Shown here: positions 2,823-29,298 of the stretch, piece by piece
Layout of the letters: the number at the start of each line of letters is the position of its first letter
Numbering within the stretch: position 1 is the first letter of the stretch
Assembly: GCA_002418835.1 (NCBI GenBank)
Contig: DIEX01000011.1
Location: 40,435 to 104,434, forward strand
Reading direction: 5' to 3'
From: Spirochaetia bacterium UBA5763
Lineage (GTDB): Bacteria > Spirochaetota > UBA4802 > UBA5550
DNA: 64,000 nucleotides
Position numbers and translations under genes: made by a program
Notes under the pieces: model-generated
What the model was told of the DNA's origin: nothing
Database searches by the model: none
The model's input: only the letters and a program-made list of their open reading frames with translations

Positions 2823-3818
2823 TCAGATGAATTTTATATCACCGGCAAAGTGGCACCACACGGAATGGCCGTTACCGGCCTCCTTCACATCAGGGAACTT
2901 CTCTCTGCATAGAGGCTCGGCATATCTGCACCTGCTTTCAAAGGGGCAGCCTGAACCGATCTCGAGCAGATTGGGAACATTCCCTTCAATTGCTTCGAGT
3001 CTCCCGGCGTGCCTGTACTTTTCATTGGAAGGCATTGAGTTCAGAAGGCCCACAGTATAGGGATGCATCGGATTTTCGAATATATCGTAAACATCCCCTG
3101 CCTCGACCTTTCTTCCCGCGTACATAACAGCAACGCGGTTAGCCATCTCAGCCACAACCCCCATATCGTGTGTTATAAGGAGGAGAGACATCTGTATCGA
3201 TTTCTGCAGTTCACGCATGAGGTCCAGTATCTGCGCCTGGATCGTTACATCAAGGGCAGTTGTAGGCTCATCCGCAATCATTAAACCGGGATTAGGCGAT
3301 GACAGAGCCATGGCGATCATCACCCTCTGCCGCATTCCGCCGGAAAGCTGGTGCGGATAGTCCCTTACCCTCTTTTCAGGAGCCGGAATTTTAACCATGT
3401 CCAGCATTTCTACAGCTTTTGCGAGAGCTCCCTTTTTATCCATGTTGTAATGAGTTATAAAAACTTCGGCAATCTGTTCCCCGATCCTGAATACAGGATT
3501 CAATGAAGTCATGGGTTCCTGAAAGATCATTGAGATCCTGTCACCCCGAATCTCCTGCATCTCTTTCTCCGTGAGTCTTAGCAGGTCTTTACCGTCCAGG
3601 AGTATTTCACCCGATTCGATCTTTCCCGGAGGGGAAGGAACAAGCCTCATTATTGCGGATGCAGTGACCGATTTGCCGCACCCGGATTCACCCACAAGCG
3701 CAAGAGTCTCGCCTTTGTTAATCCACAGGTCCAGTTCACGTACTGCGGGAACAACACCTTTTTGTGTATAGAATGAGACATTAAGCCCTTTTATATCAAG
3801 GAACCTGTTATTATCCAT
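2823..3818 (-). CDS. oppD: Oligopeptide ABC transporter ATP-binding protein OppD
   Basis: Walker A GESGCGKSV and signature LSGGMRQRVMIAMAL. Start moved to the internal ATG at 3818 (MDNNRFLDIKG) because a GGAGGG RBS precedes it and it follows the oppC stop at 3829. Confidence 0.85.
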   Translation of the reverse strand: MDNNRFLDIKGLNVSFYTQKGVVPAVRELDLWINKGETLALVGESGCGKSVTASAIMRLVPSPPGKIESGEILLDGKDLLRLTEKEMQEIRGDRISMIFQEPMTSLNPVFRIGEQIAEVFITHYNMDKKGALAKAVEMLDMVKIPAPEKRVRDYPHQLSGGMRQRVMIAMALSSPNPGLMIADEPTTALDVTIQAQILDLMRELQKSIQMSLLLITHDMGVVAEMANRVAVMYAGRKVEAGDVYDIFENPMHPYTVGLLNSMPSNEKYRHAGRLEAIEGNVPNLLEIGSGCPFESRCRYAEPLCREKFPDVKEAGNGHSVWCHFAGDIKFI

Positions 3819-3828
3819 AGTAACCCTC

Positions 3829-4725
3829 CTAATCCTTAAGCCTCGGATCAAGGACATCCCTGATCCCGTCACCCAGGAGGTTAAACCCGAGAACAACCAG
3901 AACTATTGCTATACCGGGGAATGTTACGATCCACCATGCATTGGAGACAAACTCACGGGCTGATGCAATCATAAGGCCCCACTCCGGTGTGGGGGGCTGC
4001 GCGCCGAGTCCCAGGAAGGAGAGTGCTGCTGATTCAATTATTGCGCTCCCCACGCCAAGGGTTGCCTGCACAATTATGGGAGCAAGACAGTTCGGAAGGA
4101 TTGACATGAACATAAGTTCCATGTTCCCCACACCGAGAGACCTCTCCGCTTCAACGTATTCAGCTTCTTTCTCGGCAAGAACAGAAGCCCTCATAATCCT
4201 TGTGTACTGCGGGAGACGGGCAATACCGATGGCAATCATGGCGTTAAGTAGAGTTGGGCCCAGAAGCGCCACAATAACAATGGTAAGGAGAATATACGGG
4301 AATGCCAGCATGATGTCAATTACCCTCATGGATATTCTGTCAAACCACCCGCCGTAGAAGCCGGAGATGAGCCCGATGAGAGATCCGAACACAAGGGATA
4401 TTGATACGGCAAAAAAACCTATAACAAGCGATATGCGGGAACCGTAGATAATACGTGAAAGGATGTCCCTGCCGAAATCATCTGTCCCCAGGATGTAGGG
4501 CCAGGAGAAGTAAGTCATTTTTCTCAGATCAATATTCTGAAGATAGGGATCAAAGGGCGCAACAACAGGCGCGAATACAGCAAGAAATACAAAAAATATG
4601 ATTATGTAAAGTCCGAACATGGCGGACCTGTTTTTCTTAAGGAGAAGCCAGTTCTCATACCAGATCGATTCAGCAGCGTTGTTCTCTGCATCATTACCGG
4701 CTTTAAATATCTTAATAGGATTCAT
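3829..4725 (-). CDS. oppC: Oligopeptide ABC transporter permease OppC
   Basis: 298 aa with multiple TM helices and a BPD-transporter (EAA-like) motif region. Sits between oppB and oppD. Confidence 0.85.
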   Translation of the reverse strand: MNPIKIFKAGNDAENNAAESIWYENWLLLKKNRSAMFGLYIIIFFVFLAVFAPVVAPFDPYLQNIDLRKMTYFSWPYILGTDDFGRDILSRIIYGSRISLVIGFFAVSISLVFGSLIGLISGFYGGWFDRISMRVIDIMLAFPYILLTIVIVALLGPTLLNAMIAIGIARLPQYTRIMRASVLAEKEAEYVEAERSLGVGNMELMFMSILPNCLAPIIVQATLGVGSAIIESAALSFLGLGAQPPTPEWGLMIASAREFVSNAWWIVTFPGIAIVLVVLGFNLLGDGIRDVLDPRLKD

Positions 4726-5818: not shown

Positions 5819-5953
5819 TGTCATTTCGAAGAAGCGGCAGCGACTGAGAAATCTCAATTACAGAATCAGTTTAAGAACAGAATTCACTGCAATTATTAAA
5901 TTATGCAATTGAGATTTCTCACCCGAAAAATTGAATAGGGTTCGAAATGACAT
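5819..5953. repeat. MITE-like element, copy A (~135 bp) with nested inverted repeats
   Basis: Terminal inverted repeats TGTCATTTCGAA / TTCGAAATGACA and inner inverted repeats TGAGAAATCTCAATT / AATTGAGATTTCTCA. Homologous to 13049-13158. Located between the oppA stop and the oppB start. Confidence 0.5.
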
Positions 5954-6001
5954 GTTGTAAACCATATTGTTTGCTGTTTAAACTATGTTTCTTAAAACAG
6001 C

Positions 6002-6027
6002 ATCATCCCCGCTTTCGCGGGGATGAT
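6002..6027 (-). terminator. Stem-loop (ATCATCCCCGC-TTTC-GCGGGGATGAT) 3' of oppA, a putative intra-operon terminator/attenuator
   Basis: 11 bp GC-rich perfect stem. On the minus strand it is followed by GCTGTTTTAAG (a short U-tract). Confidence 0.45.
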
Positions 6028-6044
6028 TACTAAATCAGTCCGGA

Positions 6045-7625
6045 CTATTTCTGAATCCAGACATCCCTGAATTCACGTTTTGACATTGGAGAAAGTTTGA
6101 AATCCATAACTGTTTTCTTCATAGGCTCAACAACAACAGAGTGAGCTAAGGGCACCCATGGAGCCTCTTCATGGAATATAACCTGTGCTTCTTTATAAAG
6201 CTTTATTCTCTTATCTTTATCAACAGTTTCTTTCGCCTGTGTTATGAGAGAGTTGAACTTCTCGTTTTTCCAGAACGCATAGTTCTGAGCAGGCTTGATT
6301 GTCGACTGTATTGAAAGAAGAACATAAAGGAAGTTGTCAGGATCTCCATTGTCACCTGTCCATCCTATAAGACACATGTCATGCTGGAGGTTATCCAGTT
6401 TATCAAGATATGTACCCCACTCATAAGAAACGATGTTAGCCTTAATGCCGACCTCTTTGAGCTGTGACTGCATAATCTCAGCAACTTTCTTCGCATTCGG
6501 ATTATACGGCCTTGATACCGGCATTGCCCAGAGAGTAGTTTCAAAACCGTTTTCAAGTCCCGCTTTCTTCAGAAGTTCTTTGGCAAGTTTAGGATCGTAT
6601 TTGTATTCCTGAACCGCATCATTATATGACCACATTGTAGGAGGGAGGGGGTTCTTTGCAGGCACACCGAGATTCCCGTAAACAGCCTTGATTATATCAG
6701 CTTTGTTTATTGCATGGTTAACAGCCTGACGTACAAGCTTATTGTCAAAGGGTTTTCTTGACTGGTTCATTGCCATGTAACCAACATTAAGGCCCGGTTG
6801 TTCAACTATCTTAAGTTTTGAATCAGCTTTTATATTCTCAATATCTTCGGGTGAAGGGAAGTCTATAATATCAACTTCACCTTTTTTGAGTGCAAGATAA
6901 CGTGCTGTAGGCTCAGGTATTACTTTCAGGATCAGCCTGTCGATATAAGCTTTTCTCCCCCAGTAATTATCGTTTCTTTCAAGTATTATTGAATCATCCT
7001 TGATCCACTGGACAAACTTGAAAGGGCCTGTACCGCATGCTGTACTTTTAAAATTTTCCTTCTCCTTTTCAGCAGCTGTTGGAGATACAATTGCAGCAAA
7101 CTGCATTGCAAGATTCGCGAGGAATGGAGCTTCTTTTTTCTTCAGTAAGATCTTAACCTTGTAATCATCCACTTTAACAACATCTTTAATGATATCATCC
7201 ATACCCATTGCGCTCCAGTATTTCCATGGACCGTATTTATATGCAGGGTGATCTTTCTTAAACTGACGCGCCAATGAATAGACAACAGCGTCCGCATTAA
7301 AGTCTGTGCCGTCATGGAACTTAACGCCTTTTCTGAGATAGAATGTAAATTCAAGACCGCTTGCTGCAACATCCCATTTTTCAGCGAGTCCCGGTTCAAT
7401 ATCTGTTGTGCCGTTTATAAAAGACACAAGATTGTCATAGACATTGTCCGCGATATAGAACGATTCCCCGTCAGTTTCCCTTGCAGGGTCAAGACCGCTG
7501 GCATCACCTGAACGGCCGAACACCAGTACACCGCCTGCCTTATCGCCGCTCTTACCGCATGATGTTAAAGAAAAGACCATGAGTGAAGCAAGAAGCAGAA
7601 CAAGCAATAGACTTATCCTTTTCAT
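6045..7625 (-). CDS. oppA: Oligopeptide ABC transporter substrate-binding lipoprotein OppA
   Basis: SBP family 5 fold. Start set at the internal ATG (MKRISLLLVLLLASLMVFSLTSC lipoprotein signal) with an AGGAG RBS. The upstream extension in the ORF track lacks an RBS. Confidence 0.85.
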   Translation of the reverse strand: MKRISLLLVLLLASLMVFSLTSCGKSGDKAGGVLVFGRSGDASGLDPARETDGESFYIADNVYDNLVSFINGTTDIEPGLAEKWDVAASGLEFTFYLRKGVKFHDGTDFNADAVVYSLARQFKKDHPAYKYGPWKYWSAMGMDDIIKDVVKVDDYKVKILLKKKEAPFLANLAMQFAAIVSPTAAEKEKENFKSTACGTGPFKFVQWIKDDSIILERNDNYWGRKAYIDRLILKVIPEPTARYLALKKGEVDIIDFPSPEDIENIKADSKLKIVEQPGLNVGYMAMNQSRKPFDNKLVRQAVNHAINKADIIKAVYGNLGVPAKNPLPPTMWSYNDAVQEYKYDPKLAKELLKKAGLENGFETTLWAMPVSRPYNPNAKKVAEIMQSQLKEVGIKANIVSYEWGTYLDKLDNLQHDMCLIGWTGDNGDPDNFLYVLLSIQSTIKPAQNYAFWKNEKFNSLITQAKETVDKDKRIKLYKEAQVIFHEEAPWVPLAHSVVVEPMKKTVMDFKLSPMSKREFRDVWIQK

Positions 7626-20927: not shown

Positions 20928-22898
20928 CTACCTTAGTTTAAATGAAAACGGCGCGAAAGCTGTACCGTCCCCTTTAAAAAATTTACCGAAAAATTCATAA
21001 TATTCAAGTCTCATAGACTGGATTGAACAGACCAGCCCCTCAAGCAGTATAATAAATATATTACCTGTAACAATTGCAGCTATTGCTCCGATGTTTTTCA
21101 TAGATGGATCAATAATTTCAGCAAGAGTGAACACAGCAATGCTCAACCCCGCGTGGCTGAGAGCAAAGGCCCCTGCCCTGATGTATGATATTGTATTCCC
21201 CAGAAAACCTGAGAACATCTCGATGATTTCAACCATTGATTCAACAATGTACTCGAATAAGCCCTGCGGGAAAAGAGTCTCTCCATGAAAAAAGATATAA
21301 CCGAGCGGCCCCCTGAGCAGAAAAAGAACAGATGGCGGAATAAACACAGCTGCAATCATGGCAGCACCGAGGAACTCCCCTCCAGTTATGTACCGCATAA
21401 CAAAGTATACAACAGAAAGATAAACAGCAAGACCGCAACACCCCTTTGTACCGAAAAGAGCCCCCTCGTAATGCCCCGAGAATAATCCGTTTACCACGTT
21501 AAAAACAAGCCCGGCTGAGATAAAAATTACCCCTGCCATAATTGCCATTAAAAAAAGTTCCATCATGTTTTCCATAGGGTGAAAGAGAACTGCGGGTATA
21601 AGATTCTCATAACTGAAGACACTGCCGTAGAGAATTCCGAAAACTGCTGCGGAGAGCCCGCACCAGATCATAATCCCGCCGAAATCGGAGATACTGTTTC
21701 TCTCCCCGTATCTTCTCCTCCCATATCTCAGAAAGAATAAACCTGCTGCCGCAATGGTAAGCCCCTGCCCCAGGTCGCCAAACATCACACCGAATATTAC
21801 AGTATAAGCAATTGCAGCAGCTGGTGTGGGATCAACTTCACTGTTTCCCGGGGTCCCCATCATCCTTACCAGAAGTTCAAAAGGCCTGAAAATTTTTATG
21901 TTTTTAAGAAGGACCGGAATCCTGCCGCGAAAATTCCTGTTCTCCTTAACTGAAGCAATGTGCATGTAGAAGCTTTCACCGGAACCTTCACCAAGCAGAG
22001 ACTTCAGAGACTCCGCATCAGCGAAATTTATCCATCCGCTGATAACAACAAGTTCATCCGAAGATAAAAGACCAGATTCCACTTCTGAAATTTTAAGAAT
22101 AATTCTGTAGACTTCAGATAAATAGAGCAGCCTCCCCGATAATTTTTCTCTGCTGTTCTCATAGAGCTGATGCAGCCGTTCAAGCCTCCCCCGCAGAATG
22201 CCGAGTCTCCTCTTCAGATTCAGCTCAAAAGCGCCGCCCGTCAGTAAAAAATCATCAGTCATTGATGATCCGTAAAAGCCTTCAATTTTAAGTAGCCCGA
22301 GCACATCTTCCCTGTCGGAAGAGGGGAACATTACAAGAAGTCTGTTGCCATTCATAATATAGAACCAGCTCTCCCGCATCTCACGAAGACAACTATCACT
22401 GTTTACTGTTCCGTAAAAATATGAAGCATACTTCAGGCTGTTAAGCGGTAGGAAATCGATGTTGTCTTCGCGGATTATTCTGAGTTCATCAAGCTGTTTC
22501 TCAAGAGAAATTATTCTCTTTTCAATTGCAGCCTCCGCTTTTTCAAATTTTTCTCTGCTGCTGACAATACGCCTCACCTCACGGAGGTCCTCTCCTGCAT
22601 TTCTCAGAAACAGTGCCGGCAGATCATACGTAAAAGATCCCCCTGTAAGCTCCGTATCAGTGGAGATAGCCTCCTCTGAAAAAAAGTCTTCTGCTGCTGA
22701 AACAATCAGCCCGGCAGTTTCACTGATAGAGGAGAGCCCCCGGTTTTTTAATCCATATTCCAGAGCCGGTGTTTGACCCGCAATTTCTCTGTCAAGATGC
22801 AGAAGTCTACTCTTCCCGAGACTTACGATGAGATCACTATACCTTACCGCCGGTATTACGATGTTCACTCTCCGTATGTCACTCTTTGTGAACATCAC
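20928..22898 (-). CDS. atpI: V/A-type ATP synthase subunit I (a-subunit homologue, stator/ion channel)
   Basis: 656 aa. Soluble coiled-coil N-terminal half and a polytopic C-terminal half with a conserved Arg-containing TM region (SIQSMRLEYYEF). Confidence 0.8.
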   Translation of the reverse strand: MMFTKSDIRRVNIVIPAVRYSDLIVSLGKSRLLHLDREIAGQTPALEYGLKNRGLSSISETAGLIVSAAEDFFSEEAISTDTELTGGSFTYDLPALFLRNAGEDLREVRRIVSSREKFEKAEAAIEKRIISLEKQLDELRIIREDNIDFLPLNSLKYASYFYGTVNSDSCLREMRESWFYIMNGNRLLVMFPSSDREDVLGLLKIEGFYGSSMTDDFLLTGGAFELNLKRRLGILRGRLERLHQLYENSREKLSGRLLYLSEVYRIILKISEVESGLLSSDELVVISGWINFADAESLKSLLGEGSGESFYMHIASVKENRNFRGRIPVLLKNIKIFRPFELLVRMMGTPGNSEVDPTPAAAIAYTVIFGVMFGDLGQGLTIAAAGLFFLRYGRRRYGERNSISDFGGIMIWCGLSAAVFGILYGSVFSYENLIPAVLFHPMENMMELFLMAIMAGVIFISAGLVFNVVNGLFSGHYEGALFGTKGCCGLAVYLSVVYFVMRYITGGEFLGAAMIAAVFIPPSVLFLLRGPLGYIFFHGETLFPQGLFEYIVESMVEIIEMFSGFLGNTISYIRAGAFALSHAGLSIAVFTLAEIIDPSMKNIGAIAAIVTGNIFIILLEGLVCSIQSMRLEYYEFFGKFFKGDGTAFAPFSFKLR

Positions 22899-23875
22899 CC
22901 CTCACATATAACATTTTCCATTATAATATCGGGATCAAGCTCAAACCTCAGCCCGTCAGCAATGGCAAAGAGATTCCGTATCTGCCTGTAAAGCAGCGCC
23001 AGATAACACGTCACAGTATTCATCGAATGAAAATTCTCATGAAATGTGCGGCTGAAATCACGAAACAGCGCCCGCTCCATAACTCTCTCCGCAGAAATAA
23101 CTCCTGCTCCTGTGAGGATATCAACATAGCTGGTCTGGACCTGTTTAACCAGGAACCTCTCCCACTCCTCAACAGATGAACGTATACCGAAGCCGTATGC
23201 CGGGATAGATATATTCGTTTCAATATATCTCCTGATGCTTGATTCGTCCCAGCAATAAACATTCTGAAGCCTCCAGCTCCAGGAGAGTCTGAAGTAAGCC
23301 GCAAGCCCTGTAATAATCTTCATTGAATCCCCTCCGCGGGAGAAGCTCATTGAGTTAGGAAACTCAGCGGCCAGCCGGAGAGCTGCACGGTCAATAGAAA
23401 ACTCCACCTCTTCAAATGAACCTGCTGATTCAGAAGTGAGTATATCTCTCATCCATGTATTTTGTGTGTATTTCAAAATAGCGGCCACATCGGTGTTGTC
23501 CGTGAGCATACCACGGTCCAGTACCGCAAACTCTCCGGTGTTATACCAGATTGACGGCACCGGTGTACGCCTGAATGCTTTTGCGTAAAGCTGTTTAAGA
23601 TTCAGTATTTCAAAATAGCGGAGAAAGAGGACAAAAACTTTATGGTATGACTCTGATGCTTCAGCCAGTGAAATTATAAGCTGAATCTGGCTTTCAAAAA
23701 GTCTCTCTTTGATCGAAGTGTAATCGTTTTTAATATTTCCGGAATTGAGCCCGTTTATAACCGGATTAAAATTTCCGTTCCTTGCCATTTCGGAATAATC
23801 CTTCCTGGAAAGAAGCAGACTGTGCAGCGCGTAAATTTTAGCATGAATATAACCACTGTCAGCATAGAAATTCAT
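22895..23875 (-). CDS. atpC: V/A-type ATP synthase subunit C (d-subunit homologue)
   Basis: 326 aa all-alpha protein. Size and position (between I and the upstream gene) fit the V-type C/d subunit. 4 nt overlap with atpI. Confidence 0.7.
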   Translation of the reverse strand: MNFYADSGYIHAKIYALHSLLLSRKDYSEMARNGNFNPVINGLNSGNIKNDYTSIKERLFESQIQLIISLAEASESYHKVFVLFLRYFEILNLKQLYAKAFRRTPVPSIWYNTGEFAVLDRGMLTDNTDVAAILKYTQNTWMRDILTSESAGSFEEVEFSIDRAALRLAAEFPNSMSFSRGGDSMKIITGLAAYFRLSWSWRLQNVYCWDESSIRRYIETNISIPAYGFGIRSSVEEWERFLVKQVQTSYVDILTGAGVISAERVMERALFRDFSRTFHENFHSMNTVTCYLALLYRQIRNLFAIADGLRFELDPDIIMENVICEG

Positions 23876-23887
23876 AACCGCACCACC

Positions 23888-24202
23888 TTATGTCCGGTTA
23901 TCAAGTATTACAGATACTATCCTCCCGGTTATTTTATTCTTCAGTCTCCCGTCATCAAGGAGCAGCTGCTGCTCCTGCCGCGCCTCCTTAAGCCTGTTCA
24001 ACATGCTGCATTTTATTTCCTGCAATTTCTCTTCACTCATACTTCTGTATTCGGCTGCAATCCTGCTTAATTCCGATTCCCTGAATTCAGCCAACTCTCT
24101 CCTGCGGATTTCGACCCTCTCCCCGGCACTCAATTTTGCTGCTTCGAGCTCCCTGGCGAGCCGTTCATCCTCTTCAATAATATGACTGATATCCGGATCC
24201 AT
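23888..24202 (-). CDS. Putative V-type ATPase subunit G/H-like coiled-coil protein (first gene of the operon)
   Basis: 104 aa from the first in-frame ATG (the ORF track uses an upstream TTG). Highly charged coiled coil (EELRRREL...). Operon position only; RBS weak. Confidence 0.35.
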   Translation of the reverse strand: MDPDISHIIEEDERLARELEAAKLSAGERVEIRRRELAEFRESELSRIAAEYRSMSEEKLQEIKCSMLNRLKEARQEQQLLLDDGRLKNKITGRIVSVILDNRT

Positions 24203-24316
24203 CTCTACACCATATAACGGTTCCAACTTCTACTAATTTAGCGATTAATGTGTCCCTGGTCAATAAAATGATCATTAATGGCTAAAAAACTTCTTTAAAA
24301 TTAAATAACTTTTCCC

Positions 24317-24338
24317 GGAAAAATTTACAAAAAATGTC
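24317..24338 (+). promoter_or_regulatory. Candidate ECF-type promoter (GGAAA-N14-GTC) upstream of the ECF sigma gene
   Basis: GGAAAAATTTACAAAAAATGTCA lies ~50 nt upstream of ATG 24389. Spacer is shorter than the classic ECF spacing, so tentative. Confidence 0.25.
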
Positions 24339-24388
24339 ACACATAGCAGTTAAAAAGGTATATGTAAAAGAGGAGAGAGAAAGAGTTT

Positions 24389-25261
24389 ATGTACAACCCC
24401 TTTACAGAAATTGAATCTCATGATGATAACACTACTCTTATAGAGGATACACTCCGCGGCAGCCGGAAGTCTCTTGAAAATCTTATACTTCGCCACCAGG
24501 GGTGGATTTACAATATTGCATTCAAAATGGTTATGGATCATGATGACGCAAGCGATATTACTCAGGAGATACTTATTAAGTTCATCACAAGCCTCTCCAC
24601 TTATGACCCGGCTAAGGGAGCATTCAGAACATGGCTCTACCGTATCGTTGCAAATCATGTGCTCACAATGAAAAAGAAAAAATTTGAAAAGCGTATACAC
24701 GATTTCGACACATACCTGGCGCTGATTGAAAGACTTCCGGATAACAGATCCTTTTCACATCCGGACGCCGGAGTCATGGAGGAGGAGCTTAAAACAGGGT
24801 GCATGATGGGTATGCTGATGTGCCTCAGCAGGAGGGACAGACTGGTTTTTCTCCTTGGAGCTGTATTCAATGTCACTGATATTATCGGTTCGGAGATCAT
24901 GGATGTTTCAAGGGAAAACTTCAGGAAGATCCTTTCACGCTCAAGGCAGAAGGTCTACTCACACATGAATGGTTTCTGCGGAGTTGTGAATCCTGAAAAT
25001 CCATGCCGCTGTTCACACAAGACAAAAGCATTTTATGAAATGGGGATGCTGAACCCCAGAAATACCAGGTTTTACAAACCTGACCGGAAAAGTCTGCGTG
25101 AGCTGCTGAACATAAAACTTGAACAGTTCGATGAATCATTCTATGGCCCGTTTCTGGAGACTTTCCGGGAACAGCCATTTTATGATGCACCGGACATGGT
25201 GGTCTGGCTAAGACACATGCTTCACCGCGATGAATTCAGAGGTATATTCGAACTGCATTAA
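24389..25261 (+). CDS. ECF-type RNA polymerase sigma factor with a ~100 aa Cys/His-containing C-terminal extension
   Basis: Sigma-70 region 2 (DITQEILIKF...FRTWLYRIVANHV) and region 4 HTH. C-terminal tail contains FCGVVNPENPCRCSHK. Strong AGGAGAG RBS. Confidence 0.75.
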   Translation: MYNPFTEIESHDDNTTLIEDTLRGSRKSLENLILRHQGWIYNIAFKMVMDHDDASDITQEILIKFITSLSTYDPAKGAFRTWLYRIVANHVLTMKKKKFEKRIHDFDTYLALIERLPDNRSFSHPDAGVMEEELKTGCMMGMLMCLSRRDRLVFLLGAVFNVTDIIGSEIMDVSRENFRKILSRSRQKVYSHMNGFCGVVNPENPCRCSHKTKAFYEMGMLNPRNTRFYKPDRKSLRELLNIKLEQFDESFYGPFLETFREQPFYDAPDMVVWLRHMLHRDEFRGIFELH

Positions 25262-25289
25262 TCAGCATAAATTTTTAAAGGAGATATAG

Positions 25290-25712
25290 ATGGAGGATTT
25301 GAAAAAAAGAATAAAGCAATCTTTCCGCATGGAGATGATCGGCACAGGGATGTACAGATCCCTTGCATCACAGTACAGCGGCAAAACCGGACTTAGCAGC
25401 AGGTTTATGGAATTTGCAGACCAGGAGGAGATGCACGGAAGGATGTTCAGAGAATTGTACAGAAAAAATTTCGAGGAGGAGATCGGCAGCGGCAGGCTGT
25501 GGCTGCTCACTGGTAAAACAACGGCCTTTATAATGCGGCTACTCCCACTTGAAAAAAAGATGAAAAAATTGAGCACAGCTGAGTCAGACGCGGTAAAGCG
25601 CATTGAAGAAGCACTCGCCGGAGAGTGCGAACCGGGCTTTAGAAAGATAATCAGCAGAATCCTGCCGGACGAAAAAGCTCACGCCGCGTTATACGGTGAA
25701 ATTTTCGGCTGA
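25290..25712 (+). CDS. Ferritin-like (rubrerythrin-like diiron four-helix-bundle) small protein
   Basis: 140 aa with E...ExxH...E...ExxH spacing (MEMIG, QEEMHG, DEKAHA). AGGAG RBS. 28 nt downstream of the ECF sigma gene. Confidence 0.5.
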   Translation: MEDLKKRIKQSFRMEMIGTGMYRSLASQYSGKTGLSSRFMEFADQEEMHGRMFRELYRKNFEEEIGSGRLWLLTGKTTAFIMRLLPLEKKMKKLSTAESDAVKRIEEALAGECEPGFRKIISRILPDEKAHAALYGEIFG

Positions 25713-26061: not shown

Positions 26062-29000
26062 ATGAAAGAAAGAGTTTCATCACTCGGGGTAAGCGAAGAC
26101 AGAAAACTGGCATTCAGTTTTGGCGCCCTTATTCTCGTGCTGATGCTGATTGTAACAATTACAGGTATGTACCTTTACAGTTACCAGCAGATGAAAGAGG
26201 AAAACCGCCTATCCTACGCGCTTGCAGGGCTTTTAAGTGAATCTATAAGCAAGGTAAATTTTTCCGGCAGAAATAATACACGCGTCTTTGTTGAAGATAT
26301 AAAAAAGAAAGTACCTGTCCTCGAATCAGTCTCCGTGGAAACATTCGGTGGCAGAATAATAGCTCACAGCAATCCTGCTCATAATGATGGTCCACACCTG
26401 GATAACGAGCCTGCTGTTGACATTAATCAGTTTTTGGTCAGTGACGCCATTGTATCAGAACATTTTCATGGCGACATCCTGGTTAAAGAAGTTATAGTAC
26501 CTTTCCGCGAAGGTTTGAGTAACCGGCCTGCGGGTATTATTCGTATAGCCATAAATGTTGACAGAACCCGCTGGTGGCTCAGGGTAAACCGTATTGTCCT
26601 GTTTTTTCTTATAACCGTCCTTACATCTGCCGCAATATTTATTGTTTTCAAACTGAGCGGATATTTCGGCGGCCGGGTAAGAAACCTGGCATTAAGAATG
26701 CTTACAATTCTCGACAATTCCCCGGCGCTGATATACATGAAAGATTTCGAGGGCAGATACCTCTTTATCAACAGGAAGTGGGAGGAACTTTTTAATACCA
26801 CCAATGATGCTGTAAAAGGTAAGACTGACTCCGAGATATTCACAAAAGAGATAGCAGACGGATTTATTGCTAACGACCGTTATGTGATGGATAATGACAA
26901 ATTACTGGAGATAGAGGAGTATGCGTCATTTCCGGATGGTTTACGCAGCTACCAGAGCATTAAAGTGCCGATAAAGGACAGTAACGGTAGAATTTACGCG
27001 CTTTGCGGGATATCCACAGATATTACAGAAAGAAAAAAGTCCGATGCAGCTCTCAGGGAAAGCGAAGAACAGTACCGGGTACTTTTAGACCTTGCGCCTG
27101 ATCCATTTTTCCATGGGGACTCAAAAGGAAATTTTATCAATGTGAATAATGCAGCACTGGAGCTGACAGAATACTCCAGGGATGAACTCCTGGGAATGAA
27201 TATTAGAGAACTTTTCCCTGATGATGTACTCAACAGGATACCACTGAGATTTGATCTCCTCGAACAGGGGCTTATACTCAAAGTTGAACGTACTATGCAG
27301 ACAAAAAGCGGCGGGCGTTTAACAATTGAGATGAACTCAAAAAAAATGCCCGACGGAACTTATCAGTCATTCTTCAGGGATATCACCAGAAGAAAGCAGG
27401 CTGAAGAAGCCCTGAAAGAAACAGAGGAAATATTCAGAAATTTCATGGAGAACAGCCCCATTTATGTATTCTTCAAAGACGAGGAGATTAGATCCATCAG
27501 GTTGAGCAGAAACTATGAACAGATGATCGGCAGGCCGATGGAAGAATTAATCGGAAAAAACATGTACGATCTCTTCCCGTCTGATCTGGCAAAGAATATA
27601 ATTGAAGATGATAAACGGGTTCTTAACAACAGCGAGATTGTCACCGTTGATGAGGAGATGAACGGCCGGTATTTCACCACAATAAAATTCCCGATTCTGA
27701 TAGACGGAAAGCCGAGATACCTCGCCGGATACACAATTGACATAACAGAGCGTATTCTTTCAGAAAAGATGATCGACGCGGAACGCGAAAGACTACTGGT
27801 AACACTCCGCAGTATTGGTGACGCTGTAATAACATCAGACATAGAGGGAAAAATCGTGCTTATGAACCGGGTGGCGGAAAATCTTACCGGCTGGACTCTC
27901 TCTGAAGCACAGGGGCGCCAATTAATGGAAGTTTTTAATATTGTAAACGAGTATTCACGAGAGCCCGGAGAGAATCCCGCGGACAGGGTGCTTAATTCCG
28001 GCGATATAATTGAGCTCCCGCAGAATACTATTCTTGTAAACCGTGACGGAACTGAAAGGCTTATCGCCGACAGCGGCGCGCCAATACGCTCCAGCGACAG
28101 CAGCATAACAGGTATTGTACTTGTGTTCCGTGATATCACTGAGAAGAGAAACACAGAGCTTCTATTGCAAAATTCTCAGAAGCTTGAATCACTGGGAGTA
28201 CTGGCTGGAGGAATAGCCCATGACTTCAACAATCTTTTGAGCGGTATATTCGGTTATATGGAGCTTATGAAACTCCATATTAAAAATCAAAATTTTAATA
28301 AGCTTGATGAAAATCTCAATAAATCAATCCAGGTATTTGAGAGAACCAGGGCGCTGACACAGCAGCTGCTGACTTTTTCCAAAGGTGGAGAACCTCATAA
28401 AAAGCAGATTCACCTTTCACAGATGCTTGTTTCCACCACTCAGTTTGCACTGAGCGGAACAAAGGTAAGCAGCAGGCTTGACATACAGCCTGATCTCTGG
28501 TACTGCATAGCGGATGAAAATCAGATTGGCCAGGTACTTGATAATATAATCATTAACGCTGTGCAGGCGATGCCTGATGGGGGCGGGATAAACATATGCG
28601 CTTCAAACTATTACCATAAACTTCACGACCCGGGTCTTATGCTGCCGCCGGGAAAATATGTCCGTGTCGGTATAACTGACCAGGGGCCGGGTATACCCCG
28701 TGAAAACTTAAGCCGGATTTTCGATCCATTCTTTACTACAAAGCCATCAGGCACAGGGCTCGGGCTTGCAACAGCCTATTCAATAATAAAAAAACATGGC
28801 GGAAGTATTGAAGTAACCCCGGCCGAAAATACAGGAACCACATTTATCCTTTATCTCCCTGCTGAAGATAAAGGCTCCGGCCGACGGGAAGTATCCCCCG
28901 GAATGACCAATACACAATTTAGCGGGAAAGTGCTGATTATGGATGACGAGGATTTTGTGCGGAATACAACATGTGAAATGCTTACGTCATCCGGGATAAA

Positions 29001-29298
29001 AGCTGATAGTGCCGCAAATGGTGAAGAGGCGGAAGCTAAATACAGGACGGCATACATAAGCGGAGATGCATATAAAGCCGTCATACTTGATCTTACTGTG
29101 AAGGGTGGTACAGGGGGGAGAGATACGATAAAAGCACTGAAAAAAATTAATCCCGATGTTATTGCAATAGCCTCAAGCGGATATTCTGCTGACCCTGTTA
29201 TGGCTAATCCGGCCGGGTACGGCTTTACAGACAGGCTGATAAAACCGTACAGGCTGGACGAACTGTTTACTGTGCTGAACAGAATAATGAAGAGATAG
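26062..29298 (+). CDS. Hybrid sensor histidine kinase (periplasmic sensor, multiple PAS, HisKA, HATPase, REC)
   Basis: 1078 aa. Two TM segments flank a ~130 aa extracytoplasmic domain. At least 4 PAS-like repeats. H-box GGIAHDFNNLLSGI, G-box GTGLGLA. C-terminal receiver (VLIMDDEDFV...). Confidence 0.85.
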   Translation: MKERVSSLGVSEDRKLAFSFGALILVLMLIVTITGMYLYSYQQMKEENRLSYALAGLLSESISKVNFSGRNNTRVFVEDIKKKVPVLESVSVETFGGRIIAHSNPAHNDGPHLDNEPAVDINQFLVSDAIVSEHFHGDILVKEVIVPFREGLSNRPAGIIRIAINVDRTRWWLRVNRIVLFFLITVLTSAAIFIVFKLSGYFGGRVRNLALRMLTILDNSPALIYMKDFEGRYLFINRKWEELFNTTNDAVKGKTDSEIFTKEIADGFIANDRYVMDNDKLLEIEEYASFPDGLRSYQSIKVPIKDSNGRIYALCGISTDITERKKSDAALRESEEQYRVLLDLAPDPFFHGDSKGNFINVNNAALELTEYSRDELLGMNIRELFPDDVLNRIPLRFDLLEQGLILKVERTMQTKSGGRLTIEMNSKKMPDGTYQSFFRDITRRKQAEEALKETEEIFRNFMENSPIYVFFKDEEIRSIRLSRNYEQMIGRPMEELIGKNMYDLFPSDLAKNIIEDDKRVLNNSEIVTVDEEMNGRYFTTIKFPILIDGKPRYLAGYTIDITERILSEKMIDAERERLLVTLRSIGDAVITSDIEGKIVLMNRVAENLTGWTLSEAQGRQLMEVFNIVNEYSREPGENPADRVLNSGDIIELPQNTILVNRDGTERLIADSGAPIRSSDSSITGIVLVFRDITEKRNTELLLQNSQKLESLGVLAGGIAHDFNNLLSGIFGYMELMKLHIKNQNFNKLDENLNKSIQVFERTRALTQQLLTFSKGGEPHKKQIHLSQMLVSTTQFALSGTKVSSRLDIQPDLWYCIADENQIGQVLDNIIINAVQAMPDGGGINICASNYYHKLHDPGLMLPPGKYVRVGITDQGPGIPRENLSRIFDPFFTTKPSGTGLGLATAYSIIKKHGGSIEVTPAENTGTTFILYLPAEDKGSGRREVSPGMTNTQFSGKVLIMDDEDFVRNTTCEMLTSSGIKADSAANGEEAEAKYRTAYISGDAYKAVILDLTVKGGTGGRDTIKALKKINPDVIAIASSGYSADPVMANPAGYGFTDRLIKPYRLDELFTVLNRIMKR

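Follow-up and report, generated by a model that had tools for sequence, protein, structure and literature searches.

An ECF sigma factor gene followed by a ferritin-like gene

We analysed a 64,000-nucleotide stretch of contig DIEX01000011.1 from Spirochaetia bacterium UBA5763 (hereafter, the window), with a focus on a gene for an extracytoplasmic function (ECF) sigma factor and the ferritin-like gene that follows it on the same strand (Table 1). The 290-residue product of the first gene is an ECF (group 4) member of the sigma-70 family, as an earlier note on this DNA had proposed. Residues 32-97 match Pfam Sigma70_r2 (PF04542; E = 2.8e-17), residues 138-188 weakly match Sigma70_r4_2, and the superfamily model TIGR02937, the sole NCBIfam model above its cut-off, scores 60.3 against a threshold of 42.9. 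By profile, SigW and AlgU are closer to the core region than is SigJ, which was recovered from the PDB only as a distant match (E = 7.5e-5 vs. 2.6e-16 for SigW). Region 4 is followed by a tail of about 97 residues, in good agreement with the roughly 100 extra residues reported before, and this tail had no match in Pfam, PDB-sequence or fold searches.

Table 1 Features of the sigma factor locus and its flanks, in window coordinates.
Feature	Position	Strand	Basis
ECF sigma gene, 290 residues	24389-25261	+	Open reading frame; Pfam/NCBIfam matches
Stop codon of the sigma reading frame	25259-25261	+	Sequence
Sigma-2 domain, residues 32-97	24482-24679	+	Pfam PF04542
Sigma-4 domain, residues ~127-193	24767-24967	+	Model helices; weak Pfam Sigma70_r4_2 match
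C138 codon (sigma-4)	24800-24802	+	
C145 codon (sigma-4)	24821-24823	+	
C-terminal extension, residues 194-290	24968-25258	+	
C197 codon (extension)	24977-24979	+	
C206 codon (extension)	25004-25006	+	
C208 codon (extension)	25010-25012	+	
Ferritin-like (erythrin-type, rubrerythrin-family) di-iron protein gene, 140 residues	25290-25712	+	Pfam PF02915
-35 element TGTCACA	24335-24341	+	Sole pattern match in the window
-10 element GTATATG, 16 nt after the -35 element	24358-24364	+	Family consensus
Purine-rich ribosome-binding region GAGGAGAGAGAAAGAG, ahead of the sigma ATG	24370-24385	+	Read from sequence
V-type ATPase operon (subunits I and d/AC39; first gene, 112 residues, without Pfam match); upstream, divergent	20928-24226	-	
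Hybrid histidine kinase, 1078 residues, multiple PAS domains and a receiver domain; downstream	26062-29298	+	

The second gene begins 28 nt after the sigma stop codon, at an ATG at 25290. A search of the + strand past 25712 gave no convincing intrinsic terminator. Its 140-residue product matches Pfam Rubrerythrin (PF02915; E = 6.6e-13, score 49.6 against a cut-off of 22.8), and the six predicted di-iron ligands (E15, E46xxH49, E98 and E128xxH131) were invariant in 15 orthologues. Judged from its sequence, the protein belongs to the rubrerythrin/ferritin-like di-iron superfamily, with the four-helix-bundle signature E/ExxH/E/ExxH; both its position and these ligands had been read correctly in the earlier note. 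The same signature characterizes TM1526, symerythrin and the N-domains of rubrerythrin and MbfA, and the nearest solved relatives are TM1526 (PDB 1vjx) and symerythrin (PDB 3qhb).

The protein is not a rubrerythrin proper, since the C-terminal rubredoxin-like Cys4 domain is absent: the chain ends after the fourth helix, and its sole cysteine, C112, lies outside any CxxC pair. A weak RuberyRbr match was seen in just one of 11 aligned orthologues (A4). Weak similarity to the N-domain of the iron exporter MbfA was also detected, but an MbfA identity was rejected for lack of the VIT1 membrane domain. The protein scores far below all NCBIfam equivalog cut-offs.

No anti-sigma-like gene lies near the sigma gene in the window, in keeping with what had been claimed for this locus.

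Conserved cysteines, promoter and predicted fold of the sigma family

We found more than 1000 homologues of the sigma factor, almost all of those listed being about 290 residues long, and at least 507 relatives among species-representative genomes. They occur in Spirochaetota, Desulfobacterota/Syntrophia, Planctomycetota, Ignavibacteria/Chlorobiota, Acidobacteriota, Verrucomicrobia, Nitrospinota, KSB1 and other phyla; cultured organisms that carry it include Desulfobotulus alkaliphilus (L019) and Pirellulaceae SH449 (L062). A search of 1.84 billion representatives with a profile of the extension alone gave 495 clusters (50% identity), and the full-length matches were about 290-300 residues long with the extension at about 190-290. 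The family is therefore large and spread across many poorly studied, largely anaerobic phyla. It is covered by no curated model, its members being annotated merely as 'RNA polymerase sigma factor', and our literature search found no paper on it, nor one that describes an ECF sigma gene with a ferritin-like neighbour. Searches of the literature for rubrerythrin or DUF3795 partners, and for iron-sulfur centres in ECF sigma factors, likewise gave nothing on this family.

Many matches to the extension profile were only 88-150 residues long and began at the internal Met193 (MNGxCG...), about 20 of them resembling P0139. In this single short match that was checked (L083:786-1085), no sigma core was found upstream on the 1-kb contig. 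From this case, the apparent stand-alone extension proteins are probably fragments or remnants, and we set them aside.

Residue conservation was counted over 81 sigma sequences from many phyla. C138, C145, C197, C206 and C208 are the sole cysteines of the sigma factor; C138, C197, C206 and C208 were present in all 81 homologues and C145 in 78, with serine in the remaining three. The tail motif, FCGVVNPENPCRCSH, reads C197-x8-C206-x-C208. The x8 spacing recurred in 138 of the 147 matches added by the extension-profile search, with x7 in one fragment. The earlier note had recognized a cysteine/histidine motif in the tail and had named conservation of a cysteine/histidine pattern across orthologues beforehand as a test of its proposal. 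The cysteine pattern held, even across phyla, but the motif had been miscounted as C-x10-C-x-C, its supposed histidine (H210) occurs in just seven of the 81 homologues, and the two sigma-4 cysteines, C138 and C145, had been overlooked. Conservation is strong along the whole 97-residue tail and includes a QPFYDxPD..W motif (P263, F264 and W273).

We then searched the upstream regions of 80 related loci for promoter elements. TGTCAC[AG] lay within 200 nt upstream of the sigma gene in 59 of these loci, and the consensus was TGTCACA-N16-GT[AC][TC][AC]A[G]. In a matrix of 60 sites, the positions of the -35 element were invariant and the spacer measured 16 nt in 52 sites; the -10 element was GTAT[AC]A[G] in the closest clade and GTGTC[TAC]AA in others. 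Overall, TGTCAC[AG] was not enriched, with 177 sites in 728 kb (both strands) against about 178 expected, yet it was concentrated about 30-fold upstream of sigma genes, where 59 sites fell in roughly 1% of the search space. Its placement before sigma genes is far beyond chance. In the window, the pattern TGTCAC-N15-18-GTMWA matched only once, at 24335-24364. An autoregulation-type promoter is thus present, as had been suggested, although its proposed form, GGAAA-N14-GTC, was a mis-parse, because the GTC of that pattern falls inside the true -35 element.

We utilized AlphaFold2 to predict the structure of the sigma factor from an alignment of 111 sequences (pLDDT 85, pTM 0.86). The predicted sigma-4 helices span residues 127-144, 148-159, 164-171 and 175-193, with C138 within the first helix and C145 at its end. 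The extension was modelled as a hairpin (197-206) followed by short helices, which is not a SnoaL fold, and the isolated extension had no fold match. In a Foldseek search with the model, the 12 PDB matches with E ≤ 1e-3 were without exception ECF sigma factors. The sigma-2/sigma-4 arrangement superposed best on anti-sigma-bound SigW/RsiW (5wuq; TM-score 0.84) and CnrH/CnrY (4cxf; TM-score 0.82), whereas sigma factors bound to RNA polymerase superposed poorly (TM-scores of 0.3-0.4). The model thus predicts that sigma-2 and sigma-4 are held closed, as in anti-sigma complexes.

Rare variants carry additional domains. In P0198 (436 residues) and P0218 (444 residues), the extension is followed by a hydrophobic, lipobox-like segment and a SnoaL-like/DUF4440 domain, so that sigma factor, extension, membrane segment and NTF2-like sensor are laid out in a single chain; this layout suggests that the extension occupies the place of a fused anti-sigma domain. 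P0215 (471 residues) bears a different, Cys-rich C-terminal addition.

A conserved set of cysteines need not be a sensor. Cys4 zinc sites are often purely structural, and the family occurs in organisms of very different lifestyles. The cysteines could accordingly form a structural zinc site only, in an extension that serves as a constitutive structural or RNA polymerase-contact element, with control left to another regulator or to positive feedback. We consider this distinctly unlikely. An autoregulated sigma factor without negative control would lock itself on, and a near-invariant fifth cysteine (C145) together with the conserved 97-residue tail and its QPFYDxPD..W motif hints at more than a zinc knuckle would need. 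The predicted closed arrangement of sigma-2 and sigma-4 also speaks against it.

Gene neighbours change between clades

Synteny was compared over the 80 related loci, of which the closest clade (L001-L021) shares at least 57% identity. The ferritin-like gene adjoined the sigma gene in 14 of these 21 loci, lying downstream in 11, upstream in two and divergently in one. Synteny of the pair in related genomes, also named beforehand as a test, is therefore kept in most of the closest loci. The ferritin-like gene was not beside the sigma gene in the other seven close loci or in any of the 59 more distant ones. In other clades different genes stand there instead, often with a promoter copy of their own; it is not a family-wide partner. 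At one of the close loci (L015:5902-5988), all that is left of the ferritin-like gene downstream of the sigma gene is a 29-residue piece with 55% identity to the N-terminus, and the partner gene has apparently decayed there while the sigma gene was kept.

No neighbour was conserved across all 80 loci, and none of the conserved neighbours was anti-sigma-like. Within L001-L023, the recurrent neighbours were a lipoprotein peroxiredoxin (8 loci) and a twin-arginine translocation (TAT)-Rieske protein encoded upstream (4 loci). Other clades had DUF3795 proteins (21 loci), a 144-residue Cys/His protein weakly resembling TIGR04076 (11 loci), a short-chain dehydrogenase/reductase (SDR; 11 loci) accompanied by DUF1330 (8 loci), DNA-alkylation repair proteins, a 4Fe-4S protein and a secreted 467-residue protein. 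The neighbours vary by clade while the sigma factor, its cysteines and its promoter stay constant, and they look like lineage-specific stress outputs.

The promoter follows the gene order. Its position and spacing are kept before the sigma gene, or before the first gene of the operon, in many phyla. Where a gene precedes the sigma gene in the operon, that gene carries the promoter, as does the TAT-Rieske gene in L005, L006 and L011, and the ferritin-like gene bears the only promoter copy where it comes first (L012 and L020). In L002, the divergent ferritin-like gene has its own copy (minus strand at 4645). A second copy is found in Planctomycete and Ignavibacteria loci, immediately past the sigma stop codon and before the next gene.

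These arrangements bear on the role of the ferritin-like protein, which the earlier note had tentatively placed together with the sigma factor in one metal- or redox-responsive regulatory unit. The protein could be a regulatory partner, namely a sensor of iron, oxygen or peroxide that binds the extension and acts as anti-sigma factor or co-activator. The two genes are tightly coupled, given the 28-nt gap and their adjacency in the closest clade; conserved ECF neighbours may be regulators or targets according to the ECF catalogue (PMC7826278), and the DUF2461 protein encoded at position +1 in group ECF288 has been proposed as a possible regulator. However, the ferritin-like gene is missing from beside the sigma gene at the seven close and 59 distant loci, L015 retaining only a remnant, and unrelated proteins replace it in other clades with the extension and cysteines unchanged. 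The divergent gene in L002 has a sigma-type promoter to itself and is transcribed separately, as would be expected for a target, and the neighbour in ECF41 systems, which share this promoter logic, has no signalling role (PMC3426412). The separate promoter copy, the replacement by unrelated genes and the ECF41 precedent together argue that the ferritin-like gene is a target and not a co-sensor. A regulatory partnership is, in our assessment, very unlikely.

Further observations were made on individual neighbours. The PrxQ/Bcp-like, lipoprotein-type peroxiredoxin gene (L001:6350-6895, L004:6359-6919, L012:~5830-6410, L013:~3305-3850 and L016:~5900-6450) lies downstream of the sigma and ferritin-like pair, or of the sigma gene where the ferritin-like gene precedes it (L012). 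In its reading frame, a TGA stands exactly where the peroxidatic cysteine would be (FYPKDD[ST]R[NY]-TGA-T...), after which the frame runs on for about 100 residues, and it probably encodes a selenocysteine peroxiredoxin. The window lacks this gene. An AlkD-like (PF08713) DNA-alkylation repair gene lies just downstream of the sigma gene at L036:3043-3756, L039:1409-2152 and L045:859-1935, and a gene for a 4Fe-4S ferredoxin-domain protein does so in L057. These AlkD-like and 4Fe-4S neighbours suggest that the sigma family controls varied damage-defence genes.

Relation to described ECF groups and a possible mode of control

The earlier note had named the CorE-like, ECF41 and ECF42 groups as examples of C-terminally extended sigma factors; by their defining features, the present sigma factor belongs to none of them. 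In the supplement to the ECF catalogue, the only groups given a TGTCACA -35 element are ECF41 (with a SnoaL extension), ECF103 (with an anti-sigma factor) and ECF288 (Casas-Pastor et al. 2021). The closest described group to the present sigma factor is ECF288, as compared by catalogue description only. ECF288 is recorded only from Firmicutes (example, WP_018594055.1 from Blautia producta), has an extension of about 100 residues and no anti-sigma factor, and has been described by bioinformatics only. Its promoter is TGTCACA-Xn-TGTCTAAT, its sigma-4 motif Cx6Cx5C and its tail motif CGx2GxGxCxC (Cx7CxC), with DUF2461 encoded at +1 (Casas-Pastor et al. 2021).

The likeness to ECF288 extends to the extension without a known fold (97 residues here), the absence of an anti-sigma factor, the identical -35 element, the C-x6-C motif in sigma-4, the 'CG...C-x-C' directly after sigma-4 and one soluble, conserved +1 gene. 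The -10 element TGTCTAAT is similar, not identical, to GTGTCTAA / GTGTCAAAG of the Ignavibacteria and Planctomycete members. The two nevertheless differ in several respects. The ECF288 tail has C-x7-C-x-C with GxG, whereas the present tail has CG-x7-C-x-C (C-x8-C-x-C) and no GxG; the third cysteine of the ECF288 sigma-4 motif C-x6-C-x5-C is replaced here by a conserved arginine (Arg151); and the +1 gene is ferritin-like, DUF3795, SDR or others in place of DUF2461. DUF2461 was not seen among the +1 genes scanned, which encoded rubrerythrin-family, DUF3795, SDR, DNA_alkylation and Fer4 proteins. The present family also spans phyla other than Firmicutes. The single C-x7-C-x-C match (P0221, a fragment) is a singleton from which a further search gave nothing more, and a search with the divergent member P0120 as query found the same family only, with no Firmicutes among the named matches.

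The resemblance to ECF41 (SigJ and Ecf41Bli; Wecke et al. 2012) lies in the logic of the system. Both have a TGTCACA -35 element and a 16-nt spacer, lack an anti-sigma factor, have a regulatory domain of some 100 residues fused at the C-terminus and usually have one neighbouring target, a gene or an operon of which the sigma gene is part, with the promoter before whichever gene comes first. The published account of ECF41, a precedent for a module of this kind, describes the same -35 element, no anti-sigma factor, and a single adjacent target without a signalling role (PMC3426412). In contrast, the ECF41 extension is SnoaL-like, whereas here it is modelled as a hairpin and short helices and has no Pfam match, and the ECF41 -10 element is CGTC instead of GTAT/GTGTC. 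Membership of ECF41 was rejected, as the scores for TIGR02957 (44.5 vs. 323) and PRK09636 (42.7 vs. 271) were low and only the core was matched; ECF42 was rejected on its defining features.

CorE and CorE2 (ECF44, now in ECF238) and OrbS share with the present sigma factor the absence of an anti-sigma factor, a tail motif ending in C-x-C and conformational control. However, the Cys-rich domain of CorE comprises 28-38 residues with about six cysteines, as opposed to a 97-residue tail with three, and its linker motif is CxC where the present sigma-4 has C-x6-C. CorE targets metal-homeostasis genes and is only partly autoregulated. CorE-like (ECF44) membership was rejected on tail length, cysteine count and the C-x6-C motif. 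Zinc-binding anti-sigma factors (RsrA, RsiW and ChrR) in complex with ECF sigma factors offer a further comparison, with a sigma-2/sigma-4 arrangement like the one predicted here and the idea of a thiolate-metal switch, but here the regulatory element is fused to the sigma factor, lacks an HxxxCxxC motif and would draw at least one ligand from sigma-4 itself. The module differs from known Cys-tailed ECF sigma factors in phylogenetic range, motif and outputs, combining an ECF288-like layout with an ECF41-like promoter logic.

With somewhat better than even confidence, we read the locus as a self-contained, positively autoregulated ECF sigma module with a fused Cys-bearing regulator and a ferritin-like output. 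The sigma factor would transcribe its own two-gene operon from TGTCACA-N16-GTATATG, and its activity would be set by its own extension of about 97 residues in place of a separate anti-sigma factor. We infer that C138 in the first sigma-4 helix, C197, C206 and C208 in the hairpin at the start of the extension, and the nearly invariant C145 form one metal-thiolate or redox centre. This centre would staple the extension to sigma-4 and hold sigma-2 and sigma-4 closed, a state that may be inhibitory because it would be unable to bind RNA polymerase. Oxidation or alkylation of the thiolates, or a change in metal occupancy, would alter the conformation and hence the activity of the sigma factor. Like an RsrA-type zinc site, such a thiolate-metal centre would respond to damage by oxidants or electrophiles. 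The outputs, namely the di-iron protein, the probable selenocysteine peroxiredoxin, DNA-alkylation repair and Cys-rich or iron-sulfur proteins, point to such damage as the cue, and the ferritin-like four-helix protein would be the system's output, probably in the detoxification of peroxide, oxygen or iron.

Several points weigh against this reading. The closed state in the AlphaFold2 model may stem from training bias and need not imply inhibition. For some neighbours, such as the secreted 467-residue protein and the SDR, a link to oxidants is not evident. Thiolate sites for Cu, Zn or Cd are a more typical setting for CxC motifs than redox switches are. Aerobes (Pirellulaceae and Nitrospinota) have the family too, so that the centre need not be oxygen-labile. 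CorE depends on its Cys-rich domain for activity and not for inhibition.

The cysteines might instead bind a specific metal as the signal, making the sigma factor a sensor like CorE/CorE2 (Cu, Cd and Zn) or OrbS (Fe(II)), with the ferritin-like protein handling iron. The weak similarity of that protein to the MbfA N-domain would fit such a role, but metal efflux or uptake genes were not among the conserved neighbours, the cysteine spacing is unlike that of CorE, CorE2 and OrbS, and the peroxiredoxin, DNA-alkylation repair and SDR outputs point to oxidant or electrophile damage. We regard a dedicated metal sensor as rather unlikely. A more specific idea, that the four invariant cysteines (one in sigma-4 and three in the extension) ligate an iron-sulfur cluster, is also distinctly improbable. 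If true, these would be the first sigma factors with an on-board iron-sulfur sensor of oxygen, reactive oxygen species or nitric oxide; in the closest clade the sigma factor would directly drive rubrerythrin-type and selenoperoxiredoxin defences, in a one-protein oxidative-stress pathway found across more than 10 phyla.

The favoured autoregulated module is of wider interest in that ECF sigma factors with fused tails are one-protein signalling devices, of which few types (ECF41, ECF42 and CorE-like) have been examined experimentally. The promoter of the present family is sharply defined, each locus seems to have a single target operon, and five cysteines are candidate sensors; the sigma factor could serve as an orthogonal, self-contained switch. 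Its lineage-specific outputs would also hint at the function of DUF3795, DUF1330 and similar domains.

Neither of the flanking units, the V-type ATPase operon and the hybrid histidine kinase, was linked to the sigma gene in other genomes. PAS histidine kinases occurred near the sigma gene in nine loci, in varying positions and on varying strands, which we took as paralogy and rejected as linkage. The intergenic region between the V-type ATPase operon and the sigma gene contains a perfect 10-bp palindrome, AATGATCATT, at 24267-24276, some 60 nt before the -35 element. The 80%-identical orthologous locus L001 lacks it, and it may either have arisen by chance in AT-rich DNA or serve as a local operator.

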